Shown here in pieces: positions 4,814 through 12,608 of a DNA stretch of 64,000 nt (within the stretch, counting starts at the first letter, position 1; each line of letters starts with the position of its first letter). The stretch comes from an uncultured Bdellovibrionales bacterium (GTDB lineage: Bacteria > Bdellovibrionota_C > UBA2361 > SZUA-149 > CAZDWZ01): NCBI GenBank assembly GCA_964405665.1, contig CAYOOT010000002.1, positions 24,751-88,750 of the forward strand. Reading direction: 5' to 3'. Below the pieces are notes generated by a model. That model saw nothing but the letters and a program-made list of their open reading frames with translations. It was not told the DNA's origin and did not search any database. The position numbers and the translations under genes are program-made.

Positions 4814-6466
4814 ATGAAAAAAATACAAATACCGCAAATTGTCTTTATGACATTGAATGCTTTGATCATCTCATTTGCTTTTTGCTTCACTTATACAGAA
4901 AAAGCTTATTCCATTGATTTCACAGTATCCAATCCTCAATCTCAACAAGATCAATTACAACTATTACAACAACAAGCTTACAATCAAGGACGACTAGATA
5001 ATTCAAATCTAACACCGCAACAACAAAGACAACAACAGCAGCGCCTTCTACAAGAACAAGCAAATATTCAACAACAACTTAATAATTCCAATCTTAGTGC
5101 TCAGCAGCAATTACAACTCTTACAACAACAAGCCTATAATCAAGGACAACTTAATAATTCCACACTCACATCGCAACAACAGCAGCAACAGCAAATACAA
5201 ATCTTACAACAACAAGCATTAATAAATTCTCAATTACAAAATCAGAACTATTCCCAATTTAATCAGCCGTTAAATAATCAATTTATTCAAAATACTTTAA
5301 TTGGAAGTGCAATTGGCGGGCTAGTCGGTGGACAAAGCGGAGCAAATTTAGGCTTAACAATTGGGGCATTGTCCAGTGTCGGTAGCCAAAATACCGGGGG
5401 AACTAATTTTGGTGGACTAGGTATTATTGCTCCATTACTACTTACTCAAAGTCTCACTGGCGGTGGACAAGGACTGGGAGCTGGGGGCTTAGGAGGAATT
5501 GGCTCATCAAGTTTGCTAACCCCTTTGCTACTTGGTTCTCTTTTTAGTTCAGGACTTGGTTCCAATAATTCATATCAGCAAAACCAACAAGCACAACAAC
5601 TATTAATTCAACAACAACAATTTCTGTTACAACAACAAACTGCTCTTCAAACACAACTAAACGATCCTAATCTTACACCTCAACAACGAGAGCAAATATT
5701 GTCTCAGTTAACTCAAATACAACAACAGCTAATTGCCTTGCAACAACAGCAACAACAATTGCAGCAAAATGGTGGCAGTGGACAAGGCCAGGGCGGACAA
5801 ATAGCTCAACAACTACTTACCAGTCTTTTATTAGGTGGATTACTTGGCGGTGGTGGTGGTTTCCCCGGGCTTGGTGGTGGTCTTGGAGGAGGTATCGGCG
5901 GTGGTGGCGGTATCGGTGGATGTAGTGGTGGAAGTTGCATGCCTAATGGATCTGGTGGCATCCCCGGTCAAGAAGGTCTAAATTTCGGGCAAAAACCTCC
6001 CATTACTGATAGTCTTCCCAACGTCGGACCAGATTTAGGAACGTTCGGCGAACACCCTGGACCAAACTTGGATCCTATGGGCCTTGGGCCAGAAGGACAA
6101 TTGCCTGATCAAATTACTAATCCAATGAATATTGCAGAAATGTTGGAAGCAGACAGCCAAGGTAAAACAGATGGAGCGAATTCAACAAAAGAGATAGATG
6201 CTGGAACGCCAACGCCGACACCCTCTCCAAACGAGCAAGCAGTTACTGATCCTATCACTGGTAAACAATTACAACCTGGAGAAGGGAATGTATATTATGC
6301 AGATTGGTGTCCAAATTGTTTACAAACCAAAGTCCCAGGTAGAATTGGTCAAATGAATCAAGCTGGTATATCCAATGTAAATCCAATAAACTTGGGCGGT
6401 AGCACAGCTATTCCTCATTCTCCTTATGGTGTCGGAAACATTGGAGGAAAATTATTCACATTTTAA
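4814..6466 (+). CDS. Exported Gln/Gly-rich protein with glycine-zipper segment and C-terminal thioredoxin-like CxxC (YYADWCPNC)
   Basis: ATG 4814 preceded by GAGGT; signal peptide; poly-Gln repeats; GSAIGGLVGGQSGANLGLTIG; WCPNC at 6305-6319 followed by putative cis-Pro motif AIPH. Confidence 0.75.
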   Translation: MKKIQIPQIVFMTLNALIISFAFCFTYTEKAYSIDFTVSNPQSQQDQLQLLQQQAYNQGRLDNSNLTPQQQRQQQQRLLQEQANIQQQLNNSNLSAQQQLQLLQQQAYNQGQLNNSTLTSQQQQQQQIQILQQQALINSQLQNQNYSQFNQPLNNQFIQNTLIGSAIGGLVGGQSGANLGLTIGALSSVGSQNTGGTNFGGLGIIAPLLLTQSLTGGGQGLGAGGLGGIGSSSLLTPLLLGSLFSSGLGSNNSYQQNQQAQQLLIQQQQFLLQQQTALQTQLNDPNLTPQQREQILSQLTQIQQQLIALQQQQQQLQQNGGSGQGQGGQIAQQLLTSLLLGGLLGGGGGFPGLGGGLGGGIGGGGGIGGCSGGSCMPNGSGGIPGQEGLNFGQKPPITDSLPNVGPDLGTFGEHPGPNLDPMGLGPEGQLPDQITNPMNIAEMLEADSQGKTDGANSTKEIDAGTPTPTPSPNEQAVTDPITGKQLQPGEGNVYYADWCPNCLQTKVPGRIGQMNQAGISNVNPINLGGSTAIPHSPYGVGNIGGKLFTF

Positions 6467-6483
6467 ATGAACTATCCATTACA

Positions 6484-7095
6484 ATGTATTACAAAATAAT
6501 ATTCTTATTCTTGCTATTAGCTTCAACTGTTTCAGCACAAGAATTGACCGATTCCGTTTCAAAGGTAAGAGCAAATAAAGTATATAAATCTACTCTTCCT
6601 TCCGATCCCAACTACTGGAACTATAATAATTGGTACAAAAACAATTCCGTTGTCAGCCTAATAGTTAGTGGAGAGGACAAAGAGCATTTGATTGACGCCT
6701 TAAAACAAGTAAAAATATTAAAAGAAAAAAATGTGCTGATTGGAGAAATTATTGTTGTTGGCGGTTTTCTCTTCGGAGATTTAAGCGGTAATGCTTCAAA
6801 AAATTCGGAATTTAAAAATAAAATTCAGAGTAACATGGGCAGACTTACACCTGATGCCATTAATTTTCTTAACCAAATAGCAGCTCCTTCCGAGTTGCCA
6901 GGTCTTGTTCAAAAGTTAAACTTGGGCCAGTCTTCTTTTGCCGAACTTGCCCCGATTATGGAGCACTTTGAGATCAGTCTTTCCCCAAGTTGGATTATTA
7001 GATATAAAGGAAAAGATCACATCTATGAAGGCAACTTTGATATCACAAGATTCTTTACTGCTGACGGACAATATAGTGCAATAAACTATGAATAA
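6484..7095 (+). CDS. Exported thioredoxin-fold-like protein, TrbC (F-type)-like
   Basis: Signal peptide; VSLIVS...L...K...I.EIIVVGG and HFEISLSPSWII...IYEGNFDI resemble TrbC_Ftype (xFVSxS...; FxIxxVPxxV...GNxsL). Confidence 0.45.
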   Translation: MYYKIIFLFLLLASTVSAQELTDSVSKVRANKVYKSTLPSDPNYWNYNNWYKNNSVVSLIVSGEDKEHLIDALKQVKILKEKNVLIGEIIVVGGFLFGDLSGNASKNSEFKNKIQSNMGRLTPDAINFLNQIAAPSELPGLVQKLNLGQSSFAELAPIMEHFEISLSPSWIIRYKGKDHIYEGNFDITRFFTADGQYSAINYE

Positions 7096-10460: not shown

Positions 10461-10610
10461 AGAGCCTCTTTTGTAACTACCTGAGATTATTCATTTTTTA
10501 AAATGACCTTTGATTTAGAAAAATTACAAAGAAAGTAAGTAACGTTAAATCAATATCGAAGAATAACTTATATAAGAGTTATTAGTAAGTAATTGGTTTT
10601 TTAAATTATT

Positions 10611-12608
10611 ATGAGGTTTTCAAATTTAAAATCAAGGTTTTTAGTTTTGCATATATTTCTGCAATTCTTAATACCTTTCTTCGTCCTAGCAGAAACTTCC
10701 ACGACTCTTTCAACAACTACGACTACTTCTTCTACAACCAGCACCACCCTAACAAGTGCAAATCTTTCCCCCCAAGAATTATCTCAGGTTAACTACCTAC
10801 TTTATACTTATGACTGCGATTTAAACAAAGATAAAGTTTGCGATAATAAGGATCTGCAACTTGGGCAACAACAAGCCTCACAACAACAAAATAGCGGACA
10901 AGGTTCTCAGATCGGCCAACAAATTGGGCAACAAATTGCCATGCAGGTTGGTCAACAACTTTTAGGTGGTCTGATGGGTGGAGGCCAAGGCGGTGGCGGT
11001 CTTGGCGGTGGGAATGGAGGAGGAAATGGTGGTGGAAATAACGGTGGTGGATGCAAGGGCGGCCAGTGCAATGCCCCCAAAGAAAATGCTTTGGCGCAAA
11101 AGTTTCTTGCTGCCGACAGTACAGAACATGATGGCGCAGCAAAGACACCAAAAGCATCTACCACTACTACAACTACCTCATCTTCAACAACATCATCATC
11201 TTCCACTACAACAAGCACAACTGATACCAAGAGTGATAAAGAAAAAGAATACGAAGCATTAAAAGCTGATCGAGATAAAGCTTTAGGCCCAGAATACAAA
11301 GATTGGCGCGATACTAAACTAAAAGATTTAGGAGGCAGTGAAGGAATTGATAAAGCGATAGATGCCAATTCCCATTTAAAACCTGGACAACCAGCCGGAG
11401 ATAGCCTTGCAAAATTTGACAGTACCTTGCGCGATGGAATTAATAAAGGTGATATCACTCCACAAGAAGCTGCCAAGCTATATACATTGGCTGAACATTC
11501 CGCGCATTTCAAAACTTCTGCCGGGGAATTTTATAGTAACAACGGTGGGGCAAATGGCATTTCACTGGGCAGTCAAAGTTCAGATTTTAGCAAACTTATT
11601 AATAGTGAGTCTAATTATTTAAACAAACATGGCTTCGATGCCGGATCAACAAGATTAGTTGAGCAAGAATTATTCGGTTCAGCAGACGTATCGACACTTA
11701 AACAATATGGCGGAACCTGTTGGACCTGTTCCGGAGTGCAATCTGTTAACTATACAGATGCAGGAACAATGGCCGAAATAAGACATACTATTATTGATGG
11801 TGGTCAATACAAAGGATATTCTGCGAGCGATCTTAAGTTGAACCATGCAATAGATGCCCAATGGACTCCTTCTAACGGAACGGCAAGTTTAGCTAATCAA
11901 CTCGATGTTGGCTTAATTGGAAAGCTGGCTGGGAACGAAAGTCCTTGGAGTGGTGGTTACCCTGGCGCAGTTGGATCTGCCGTAGAACAAATTACTGGTA
12001 CTAAACCGACAATTAATACTTTTGGTTATGATAAAGCTAGTCAACTTAATTTCATAAATGGCACTGATCCTGTAGGTGTGACTTATCCATTTCCTGGTCA
12101 TGCCGCCTCATTCTCTTCAATAATTTCAAAAGATCCGATTACCGGAACTCCAGTTCGTTATGTACTTGGAGATAATAGCTGGAGTCCAAGCAACGAAGCT
12201 TTTGTTAAAGCTATCCCGGGAAATGCTGGAAAACTTACATTTCCAGGCGGCTTTGGCGGAGGTGGACCAGGAGGGTTGGGATTGGGTGGTTTAACTGGTG
12301 TTGGAGGTTTAGGAGGGAATGGTCTTTTTGGAATGTATAATACTGCTTATAATAAAGGCACGCAAAATAGTAATTTCAATCAAGAAAATAAAGAAAAGCT
12401 TAGCAGTGAATATAATAGTCTCACACAACCACAGAAAAGCAAGATCATTGAAACCTGTGGCCAAATGATTAATTCTGGACAAAGTGTTGCTAATGTTTGC
12501 TTAGTTGCTTTTGAAGATTTAGCGAAAAATCCCACTATTACAGGCGTATCTGGCAAAACTTCCAGAACAAATTCAGCTAGAATTGACATCGACTTACTAA
12601 AATTTTAA
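10611..12608 (+). CDS. Exported protein: Ser/Thr linkers, Ca-binding-like loop, Gln/Gly-rich region, papain-fold cysteine peptidase-like domain
   Basis: Signal peptide; DLNKDKVCDNKD EF-hand/dockerin-like loop (10818-10853); Q365...C370 (QYGGTCW, cf. QGxCGSCW), H497 (GHA), N522 (DNSW). Confidence 0.65.
   Translation: MRFSNLKSRFLVLHIFLQFLIPFFVLAETSTTLSTTTTTSSTTSTTLTSANLSPQELSQVNYLLYTYDCDLNKDKVCDNKDLQLGQQQASQQQNSGQGSQIGQQIGQQIAMQVGQQLLGGLMGGGQGGGGLGGGNGGGNGGGNNGGGCKGGQCNAPKENALAQKFLAADSTEHDGAAKTPKASTTTTTTSSSTTSSSSTTTSTTDTKSDKEKEYEALKADRDKALGPEYKDWRDTKLKDLGGSEGIDKAIDANSHLKPGQPAGDSLAKFDSTLRDGINKGDITPQEAAKLYTLAEHSAHFKTSAGEFYSNNGGANGISLGSQSSDFSKLINSESNYLNKHGFDAGSTRLVEQELFGSADVSTLKQYGGTCWTCSGVQSVNYTDAGTMAEIRHTIIDGGQYKGYSASDLKLNHAIDAQWTPSNGTASLANQLDVGLIGKLAGNESPWSGGYPGAVGSAVEQITGTKPTINTFGYDKASQLNFINGTDPVGVTYPFPGHAASFSSIISKDPITGTPVRYVLGDNSWSPSNEAFVKAIPGNAGKLTFPGGFGGGGPGGLGLGGLTGVGGLGGNGLFGMYNTAYNKGTQNSNFNQENKEKLSSEYNSLTQPQKSKIIETCGQMINSGQSVANVCLVAFEDLAKNPTITGVSGKTSRTNSARIDIDLLKF

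Follow-up and report, generated by a model that had tools for sequence, protein, structure and literature searches.

The window analysed here, the whole stretch of 64,000 nucleotides (nt) from contig CAYOOT010000002.1 of an uncultured Bdellovibrionales bacterium, encodes two proteins, A (4814–6466, 550 amino acids) and B (10611–12608, 665 amino acids), which share a composite module. It consists of a Gln/Gly spacer (elsewhere Ser/Thr/Pro), a 'GQQI.QQL..LLGGLL' core, a poly-Gly tether and a loop of the form [Cys/Sec]-x4-Cys, where Sec denotes selenocysteine. This module is non-random, is unique to the locus in its genome, and stands beside or is fused to TraU-like genes elsewhere. The x4 spacing of the pair is specific, and Sec is predicted to replace either of its members in selenium-using relatives. 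According to the best reading of these data, which we hold with moderate confidence, the module may represent a flexible Gly tether with a redox-active (disulfide or selenenylsulfide) loop in a periplasmic system of TraU-like and thioredoxin-fold proteins. It would then be characteristic of the accessory or cargo proteins belonging to a periplasmic system limited to one order of Bdellovibrionota.

A shared module in two exported proteins

The translations of A and B are the strings given in the original prediction, a note made from the letters of the window, and the module coordinates lie within 3–6 nt of those given there. The parts of the module follow in the same order in both proteins, from the Gln/Gly spacer to a 'QQLL..LLGGLL' core, poly-Gly and finally GGCxGGxC. 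It is internal in both, being followed by 176 residues in A and by 512 in B. Its features, with reference to P0003, an orthologue of B described below, are as follows:

5762–5938, plus strand: module of protein A (Gln/Gly spacer, core, poly-Gly, Cys loop), residues 317–375
5801–5845, plus strand: core of A, 'IAQQLLTSLLLGGLL', hydrophobic/Gly with a period of ~4
5846–5920, plus strand: poly-Gly tether of A, GGGx repeats
5921–5938, plus strand: loop CSGGSC of A, Cys370 and Cys375
10884–11069, plus strand: module of protein B, residues 92–153
10935–10976, plus strand: core of B, 'IAMQVGQQLLGGLM', kept in the orthologue P0003
10977–11051, plus strand: poly-Gly tether of B, missing from P0003
11052–11069, plus strand: loop CKGGQC of B, Cys148 and Cys153, missing from P0003

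The two modules align end to end with one 3-residue gap (BLOSUM62 score 173). Shuffles of the whole segments score 57 ± 12 in global alignment (z ~10) and 83 ± 9 in local alignment, and none of 2000 reaches 173 by either measure. Because whole-segment shuffling destroys the gradient from Gln to Gly, the Gln, core and Gly blocks were also shuffled separately; these block-preserving controls score 87 ± 12 (z of the observed value 7.3; 0 of 5000 reach it). C-x4-C was retained by both shuffled segments in 70 of 20000 trials. The observed score is thus beyond all shuffled low-complexity controls, the comparison that the original prediction had proposed.

A six-frame scan of the whole 2.82-Mb genome finds GGC.GG.C in no open reading frames (ORFs) other than A and B. 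The same holds for C-x4-C in a context rich in Gly, Ser and Asn, and an LLGGLL-type hydrophobic/Gly core followed by GGG is confined to A and B, save for two spurious matches in signal peptides. Four further ORFs of the genome contain poly-Gly (the tail of GroEL, two '...GGGGW' proteins and an RGG protein), and all of them lack the core and the Cys pair. Outside the module no similarity between A and B was found, and both have signal-peptide-like N-termini on inspection of their translations. The claim that two otherwise unrelated exported proteins share one ordered architecture with an identically spaced Cys pair is therefore borne out by alignment, shuffles and genome scans.

At the DNA level the two modules are ~70% identical with many synonymous differences, which rules out a recent gene conversion between A and B; the similarity is old. 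A word-based homologue search with protein A yielded nothing, its results being swamped by low-complexity candidates. Pfam families of the Gly-zipper type do not match A or B at E ≤ 0.01, and an earlier Gly tract of A gives a weak, sub-threshold NCBIfam match to E492-microcin (E 0.06).

Recurrence beside TraU-like genes

The anchor gene of the locus encodes a TraU-like protein of 659 amino acids, for which 12 homologues with 35–61% identity were found. We examined the contigs of these homologues together with two loci from metagenome-assembled genomes (MAGs), 'uncultured Bdellovibrionales bacterium' and 'Bdellovibrionota bacterium STL-BDEC1'. Both MAGs were found with an alignment as query on genome contigs; a single TraU-like sequence as query on genome contigs gave no match. 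Of 124 genomes of the GTDB phylum, 19 are matched by a profile of the TraU-like family; every one of these belongs to the order of the window's organism, and an exhaustive HMMER pass over 1.84 billion representative proteins returns only 81 clusters.

The canonical loci examined have a common core of three proteins: one of ~650 amino acids, one of ~200 (signature 'YW.YN.WY...SP[ST]WI..Y.G..YIYEG') and one of ~195 (signature 'GAGTYD.KPDC...RCLPTR.H...EEYREG..AW'), the latter two being fused in three loci. One to four module ORFs adjoin the TraU-like homologue in all of these loci (1–4 each on L009, L010, L012, L014, L016, L018, L019 and L020) but that of genome G001, where the TraU-like protein has an internal 'CGNGTC' and no separate module ORF lies nearby. 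Elsewhere a module ORF typically comprises a signal peptide, a low-complexity spacer, 'GQQI.QQ...LLGGLL' or 'DL.FLN.LLGGLL', poly-Gly and a varied domain; the counterparts of the core of A in other loci read 'GQQI.QQL..LLGGLL' or 'FLN.LLGGLL'. The plan of A is repeated on L010 (9057–10004), where 'GIGQQIGQQVVGAILGSLLGGGGG...GGGCNNGGC...GGGCNNGNC' is followed by a linker and then by 'WHCTGC' as a CxxC end. The location of the module varies between N-terminal, central, C-terminal and inside the TraU-like ORF, and in long paralogues of ~1000–1245 amino acids the Gly tracts and loops are part of the same ORF as the TraU-like domain.

A strict back-translated pattern (LLGGLL, up to 30 nt, GGGG), applied to three genomes with a total of 12.4 Mb, has one site per genome, each adjoining a TraU-like gene, if two overlapping matches in genome G061 are counted as one site. 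The reversed pattern as control has 0 matches. The recurrence of the motif near Tra-like genes of related genomes, which the original prediction had named as a check, is thus found both with this pattern and in the flanking module ORFs. Its further conclusion that the two halves of the locus form one system agrees with a module that is confined to A and B within its genome and recurs beside TraU-like genes in others.

In a set of 5.8 billion proteins the only homologue of B is P0003 (55% identity), encoded on the syntenic contig L008. The order there is the end of an A-like protein, a protein of 195 and one of 196 amino acids, the B-like protein, a leaderless protein of 335 amino acids, fumC and nadA; a gene for a 903-residue protein, present in the window, is missing from this otherwise syntenic contig. 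P0003 keeps the front of the module, 'GQAGQQIAQQLIQQLLSSALKGGG'. The orthologue of A from this sample is interrupted at its poly-Gly tract, one part lying on L017 and the other on L008. It contains 'GGGCGAGGC' once or twice and 'GGCGPNGC', followed by a CLAC-containing end, and has 2–3 C-x4-C loops.

Some further observations concern the context of the module outside the window's genome. Three TraU-like loci are present in one genome, G020, among them L026 (940–2400; C208) and L003 (C190), and on L026 a C-x4-C loop, 'CSAGGC', precedes the core 'QQIVQQLIGSLIGGLLGGLLGGGG', so that the order of the sub-modules can vary. The metagenome contigs L016 (1–13123) and L018 (1–6153) carry the canonical trio of module protein, TraU-like protein and fused partners inside a cluster resembling a non-flagellar type III secretion system, with genes for FliP, FliQ, YscJ/FliF, FliN, FliJ and FHA/YscD; an FHA/YscD-type gene also lies upstream of the locus on L009. 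The commonest domain on distant modules combines a hydrophobic strand followed by NCHGGGD with a hydrophobic strand followed by DGGC.PCRG. It is found at the following sites:

L009, 7980–9818
L012, 8490–9968
L014, 2178–3128
L016, 1807–3156
L018, 645–1880
L019, 8407–9912
L020, 8495–9865

The order of His and Cys in this domain recalls the peptidases of clan CD (caspase-like), but Pfam gave no match for it. In most distant module proteins, poly-Gly is followed by 'PG[SD]xxR[EKD]' (L009, 13990–15027 and 15221–16690; L016, 1807–3156; L010, 9057–10004; L020, 13840–14202), a motif that is not evident in A or B and that may be a processing site.

Predicted selenocysteine in the loops of relatives

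On L009 the sequence '...GGGGGGG-TGA-GGGG-C...' has an in-frame TGA in place of the expected first Cys (G7-U-GGGG-C, with U for Sec), and an in-frame TGA is found at the same expected position on L020 ('G12-TGA-GSGKGPGG-C'). The genes for tRNA-Sec, SelA, SelB and SelD lie 3–7 kb downstream of the canonical locus on L009. Another 20 regions surrounding distant members of the family were then translated with TGA read as U. Among 93 consecutive pairs of C or U in these regions, 41 have a spacing of exactly x4, while x1, x2 and x5 together account for 5. Forms with U-x4-C and C-x4-U occur in seven genomes or contigs. The loops, including those of Cys-only members, are as follows:

L066 (genome G027): UTGPNC, CTGPDC, UVGGTC, CAGGGU
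L070 (G011): UGPGGC, UTGGSC, CSGGNC twice
L069 (G025): UVGNSC, UGGGSC, CAGGNC twice
L074 (G029): UGPRGC, CAGGGU
L073 (G024): signal peptide-UGPGGC-polyG, CTGPGU, CGGGGU
L059 (G014): module protein with CIGGTU at its end
L068 (G023), Cys only: CANGSC, CQVGSC, CQGGSC, CTGAGC twice
L064 (G005), Cys only: CGPNGC, CSGGGC
L060 (G024): small secreted protein with seven C-x4-C loops

Homologous columns of the extension alignment read U/U/U/U/C and U/C/C/U/C, and the occurrence of Sec and Cys in one homologous column is the classical criterion for Sec/Cys homologues. A hairpin of at least 5 base pairs, with a loop starting with GG (mostly GGU), is present 22–34 nt downstream of 10 of 14 such UGAs; of the independent Cys codons in the same motif, 5 of 58 have one (Fisher p = 4e-6). 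These GGU-loop hairpins resemble selenocysteine insertion sequence (SECIS) elements. A genetic code in which UGA is generally read as sense (code 4 or 25) is not tenable, given that UGA ends many long ORFs on L009 and L020, that no stops interrupt the SelA and TraU-like matches and that tRNA-Sec is adjacent.

The genomes with U forms have selA, with the exception of G029, an incomplete assembly in which selA was not found and in which tRNA-Sec lies beside the gene. No selA was found in the window's genome, in G005 or in G012, and in these genomes only Cys, or no loop, was seen. Since selA is absent, both loop positions are Cys in the window's organism; the corresponding codons of A and B are TGT/TGC, and these two proteins do not count as bacterial selenoproteins themselves. 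In G011, G025, G027 and G029, selA and/or tRNA-Sec are located directly beside the long TraU-like gene. The data suggest that the TraU-like family, with its putative selenoproteins, is a principal user of Sec in these organisms. The coordinates of the Sec genes are as follows:

tRNA-Sec: L070, 9600–9690; L074, 32–122; L066, 6923–7013; L009, 20129–20223
selA: G027:C30:8546-9628; G011:C11:35980-37056; G025:C60:120319-121386

The long TraU-like paralogues contain 2–6 in-frame UGA codons each and would be multi-selenocysteine proteins (L066, 7540–10614, G027; L070, 6340–9378 on the minus strand, G011; L069, from 7884, G025; L073, 7976–11677, G024; L074, from 229, G029). They also hold C-x2-U sites ('CTTU', 'CYDU') and 'UPU'. 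Gene callers cut such proteins at the first UGA, and their representatives end with '...GGGGT', '...TGCGPNG' or '...GGCSSGG'. Searches of Pfam and NCBIfam with the Sec-bearing relatives gave no family match.

The TraU-like anchor and its partners

The TraU-like family has 8 invariant Cys. Its link to TraU is transitive and remote and concerns the C-terminal half only, because only two distant members pass the Pfam cut-off: G015:C3 and G021:C80 match Pfam TraU at positions 196–304 with 27.1 and 26.6 bits (cut-off 26.5) and are also matched by the profile of the TraU-like family (E ~2e-13). An AlphaFold2 model of the TraU-like protein built from 13 sequences has a predicted local distance difference test (pLDDT) score of 33.4, and a search of PDB sequences with the family profile returned noise only.

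The ~200-residue protein of the core trio (partner 1) has no CxxC and no Cys. The AlphaFold2 model of partner 1 (pLDDT 70.6) shows the element order beta-alpha-beta ... beta-beta-alpha, and its top 50 Foldseek matches in the PDB are all of thioredoxin fold (e.g. DsbA, ResA, Etrx1 and the b' domain of PDI). Comparison by hhalign of the TraU-like profile, partner 1 and the ~195-residue protein (partner 2) with eight Tra proteins of the F plasmid gave no significant match; the best of all is that of partner 1 to TrbC (E 0.0055). Partner 2 has no match in Pfam or among the F-plasmid Tra proteins, and Pfam at E ≤ 10 returned nothing relevant for any member of the three core families. The locus contains no genes for a pilin, an ATPase, a secretin or a relaxase. 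It is therefore not a conjugation system and represents at most the reuse of a periplasmic pair of the TraU/TrbC type.

A proposed redox arm and its alternatives

Sec replaces Cys almost exclusively at redox-active positions, and it is the exchange of Sec and Cys within the pair that points to a redox function of the module. The Cys pair at the tip of the ~25-residue Gly tether may form a reversible disulfide, which in relatives would be a selenenylsulfide. Such a 'swinging arm' could carry redox equivalents, or form transient mixed disulfides, between the TraU-like/thioredoxin-fold machinery and the tethered domain, which would be the CPNC-containing C-terminal domain in A and the Cys-peptidase-like domain in B. 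Candidates for the exchange are the TraU-like protein with its 8 invariant Cys, the conserved Cys of partner 2, the CPNC of A and the catalytic Cys of the papain-like domain of B. The hydrophobic/Gly core is the most conserved part of the module; since it is present even where loops are missing, its probable task is to dock the arm, perhaps on the machinery or on a membrane, a role that the redox function itself does not cover.

Several results weigh against a redox arm in a TraU-like system. In P0003 a Pro-rich linker stands in place of poly-Gly and the Cys pair, so that the loop is dispensable for the protein family of B and the full module is not required for that peptidase. Many distant module proteins (L009, 7980; L012; L014; L016; L019; L020, 8495) have the core and poly-Gly with no [C/U]x4C directly after them; they contain a single Cys, or C-x4/6-C in an acidic stretch further on. 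Tether and loop are hence separable. Pfam TraU (PF06834) does not match the window's protein or its 12 homologues even at E ≤ 10, and hhalign of the TraU-like profile against F TraU gives a non-significant probability of 0.2%, the best local alignment pairing 'ELYPVVTNLSGFGSPTLSTAAIIARR' with 'SMYPFNGWVSNESSPLQSSLLVSERM' of F TraU. The term 'Tra-like' used in the original prediction is thus supported only transitively, by way of the two distant members at the Pfam cut-off, and not by a direct match. The Foldseek matches of partner 1 are weak (best E 3.4e-3, none reaching 1e-3; template modelling score 0.3–0.5). Pfam found nothing on the CxxC end-domains of A, L008 and L010, and the CPNC domain of A is not recognised as a thioredoxin; the idea that these ends are 'mini-thioredoxins' is accordingly unconfirmed.

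A profile hidden Markov model (HMM) of the module, built only from the modules of other genomes, also has no match in this genome under the default composition correction of HMMER; with --nonull2, A ranks first and B third, an RGG protein being placed between them. A profile scan, another of the checks proposed at the outset, thus retrieves both proteins only in its uncorrected form. Homology of the modules is not demonstrable by profile statistics alone, and it is the ordered architecture, the shuffles, the uniqueness within the genome and the genomic association that make the case for the module, rather than E-values of a profile.

The original prediction had proposed a signal for targeting, polymerisation or membrane insertion. 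In the form of a recognition or sorting signal, the machinery would bind 'LLGGLL'-poly-Gly to route, insert or release cargo, and the Cys pair would only staple a hairpin. This may be regarded as unlikely, even if the strict co-occurrence of module proteins with a TraU-like gene speaks for it, as does the usual position of the module after a signal peptide and spacer and before varied cargo (a CxxC domain, a papain-like domain or an 'NCHGGG...DGGCxPCRG' domain); moreover, 'PG[SD]xxR[EKD]' after poly-Gly in distant loci could be a processing site. However, the location of the module varies (in A it is central and in B N-terminal, in long paralogues it stands at either end, and it is also fused to the machinery protein itself), half of it is missing from the orthologue of B, and no sorting tag of NCBIfam or Pfam matches. 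Sec at either position of the pair would be expensive for a purely structural staple, and the change from a Cys pair to Sec/Cys pairs in relatives points to redox chemistry rather than to a sorting signal. The proposed signal is therefore not supported by P0003, by the variable position of the module or by the Cys/Sec exchange.

The module might also be a structural element, namely an extensible or coacervating tether of Gly-rich repeats with hydrophobic residues, like elastin or silk, whose Cys/Sec loops make intermolecular S–S or Se–S bonds in a periplasmic or surface matrix or fibre. The long (GGLGGILGGGGGG)n and (GGIPGLGG)n repeats of some paralogues, the presence of several loops per protein, the small secreted protein with seven C-x4-C loops on L060 and the two Gly/hydrophobic tracts of A are in line with such a role. 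Yet the constancy of x4 and the occurrence of Sec at both ends are more easily reconciled with pairing inside one molecule than with links between molecules, A and B have one loop each, and the locus contains no genes for assembly of the fibre type, which makes cross-linking improbable.

That a flexible Gly-rich chain presents a site for metals or metalloids (e.g. in the handling of Cu, Zn, Ni or selenium) appears very improbable. A pair of thiolates or selenolates flanked by Gly could chelate soft metals, and some proteins carry many tandem copies of the loop; on the other hand, His, Met or Asp co-ligands are missing, the loci contain no genes for metal transport or metal chaperones, and Sec at either position argues against a fixed coordination geometry. 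Finally, a chance similarity of two low-complexity Gln/Gly tracts, for which the non-significant composition-corrected HMM scores and the poly-Gly tracts of four other ORFs may be quoted, is refuted by the shuffles, by the absence of core and Cys pair from those ORFs and by the recurrence of the ordered architecture in at least 10 loci, each of which has a neighbour from the same gene family.

Returning to the redox arm, we tentatively consider it possible that the window locus is the Cys-only version of an undescribed extracytoplasmic thiol/selenol system. A TraU/TrbC-derived machine would here be combined with [Sec/Cys]-x4-Cys loops on poly-Gly, with multi-selenocysteine relatives encoded beside tRNA-Sec/selA, and the arms would relay redox equivalents to, or gate, cargo of the Cys-peptidase or CxxC type. 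A description of the module, the locus or the selenoproteins was not found in Pfam, in NCBIfam or in the literature searched, and the chance that the system as a whole is new is substantial. If so, a motif of two proteins would define a module family for which no Pfam or NCBIfam model exists, and would lead to bacterial multi-selenocysteine exported proteins with genes linked to the Sec machinery. The F-pilus periplasmic proteins TraU and TrbC would have been reused outside conjugation for thiol chemistry. U-x4-C would be a new extracytoplasmic redox motif with a natural Cys control, namely this genome, and Bdellovibrionota would possess a candidate system attached to secreted Cys-peptidase-like proteins.

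Genes of the locus

The locus comprises seven co-directional ORFs (2815–13664), none of which has a Pfam or NCBIfam assignment:

2815–4794, plus strand: TraU-like Cys-rich protein, 659 amino acids, 8 invariant Cys in the family; anchor gene
4814–6466, plus strand: protein A with signal peptide, Gln-rich repeats, earlier Gly/hydrophobic tract (5297–5560), module, Pro/Gly linker and C-terminal CPNC (6308–6319)
6484–7095, plus strand: partner 1, Cys-less, predicted thioredoxin-like fold (TrbC/TraF-like)
7088–7678, plus strand: partner 2, 'GAGTYD.KPDC...RCLPTR.H...EEYREG..AW'
7749–10460, plus strand: 903-residue 'peptidase 1' (QGANPTC ... GDNTW), without module, missing from the syntenic L008
10611–12608, plus strand: protein B with signal peptide, Thr/Ser tracts, module, domain whose motifs follow a papain-like order (QYGGTCW 11703–11729, GHA 12093–12113, GDNSW 12168–12182; motif inspection only) and second Gly-rich tract
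12618–13664, plus strand: leaderless protein, 9 nt after B, conserved on L008 and L009

The intergenic gaps among these ORFs range from −8 to 150 nt, and a scan of the locus for promoters and terminators revealed no convincing internal terminator. The locus is chromosomal and located between an HDOD gene and fumC. Families of Tra proteins or type IV secretion systems (T4SS) have no match among the seven ORFs and three flanking ORFs scanned.

The domain of B shows Q-x5-C-W, G-H-A and N-S-W in the order of papain, as judged by inspection; its peptidase region has no match in Pfam or among PDB sequences. BLASTP of B against the 903-residue 'peptidase 1' detected no significant similarity beyond a 'VRY..GDN[ST]W' patch. 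The second Gly-rich tract of B, 'FPGGFGGGGPGGLGLGGLTGVGGLGGNGLFG' (12240–12332), follows the peptidase-like domain and is kept in P0003 and in a fragment of genome G020 (L002), where a canonical-looking serpin with a signal peptide follows the tract.

The leaderless protein had been called a 'serpin' in the original prediction; it has no match to the Pfam serpin family. Its counterparts lie on L008 (3689–4696) and L009 (6553–7857), and the proteins of the three loci have a common C-terminal signature, 'RL(N/D)(E/K)(K/N)GA.A......A....P....IDGP(Y/F)(L/V)AW'. Because of its conservation in two other loci, it is part of the system in at least three organisms.

Comparison with known systems

The sorting tags GlyGly-CTERM, MYXO-CTERM and PEP-CTERM are, like the module, short Gly-rich and sometimes Cys-containing segments common to unrelated exported proteins. 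These tags are located at the extreme C-terminus, are followed by a transmembrane helix and a basic tail, and are paired with a rhombosortase or an exosortase. The module, in contrast, is internal, without a transmembrane segment or basic tail, and none of these tags matches it in NCBIfam.

With the F-type T4SS, the locus has in common that the anchor gene has the ordered motifs of TraU (PF06834), that partner 1 is predicted to be a Cys-less thioredoxin-fold protein in the manner of TrbC/TraF (PF09673, PF13728), and that the order of TraU-like and TrbC-like genes echoes traU-trbC of the F plasmid. TraF and TrbC are considered Cys-less thioredoxin-fold proteins. The differences concern size (~650 amino acids for the anchor as compared to 330 for F TraU), the Gly/Cys-loop module, which F TraU lacks, and the chromosomal location without pilin, ATPase, secretin or relaxase.

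The relatives resemble established bacterial selenoproteins in having in-frame UGA codons, putative SECIS hairpins, Cys-containing orthologues and selABCD, with A and B as the Cys forms. Their motif, U-x4-C, differs from the usual CxxU or UxxC, and the presence of several Sec residues in one protein (3–6 in relatives) is believed to be unusual for bacteria.

In the periplasmic protein SoxY, a Gly-flanked reactive Cys on a mobile arm carries intermediates (PMC5336275). The module would likewise present a Gly-flanked reactive Cys on a mobile arm to partner enzymes in the periplasm. The single Cys of SoxY stands at the very C-terminus of a folded domain; the module has two Cys at a fixed x4 spacing, carried by a long disordered tether, and Sox genes are absent here.

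The high-Mr thioredoxin reductases offer a further parallel: the enzyme of Plasmodium falciparum has a C-terminal arm GCGGGKCG in place of the mammalian GCUG (PMC6272602). The likeness comprises a Cys pair with four mostly Gly residues in between, a flexible Gly-flanked chain, and Cys/Cys and Cys/Sec versions in different organisms. Two Cys four residues apart in a Gly-rich stretch are found in both CSGGSC of A and CKGGQC of B, each after ~25 Gly-rich residues. Unlike the arm of the reductase, the loop of the module is extracytoplasmic, internal and often present in several copies instead of standing at the end of a flavoprotein, and it is preceded by 25–35 Gly-rich residues and the hydrophobic/Gly core; A, B and the locus contain no FAD/NAD domain. 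Being exported and without a flavoprotein, the module is not a member of the thioredoxin reductase family; by analogy, however, it would work like a Cys/Sec arm of the thioredoxin reductase type.

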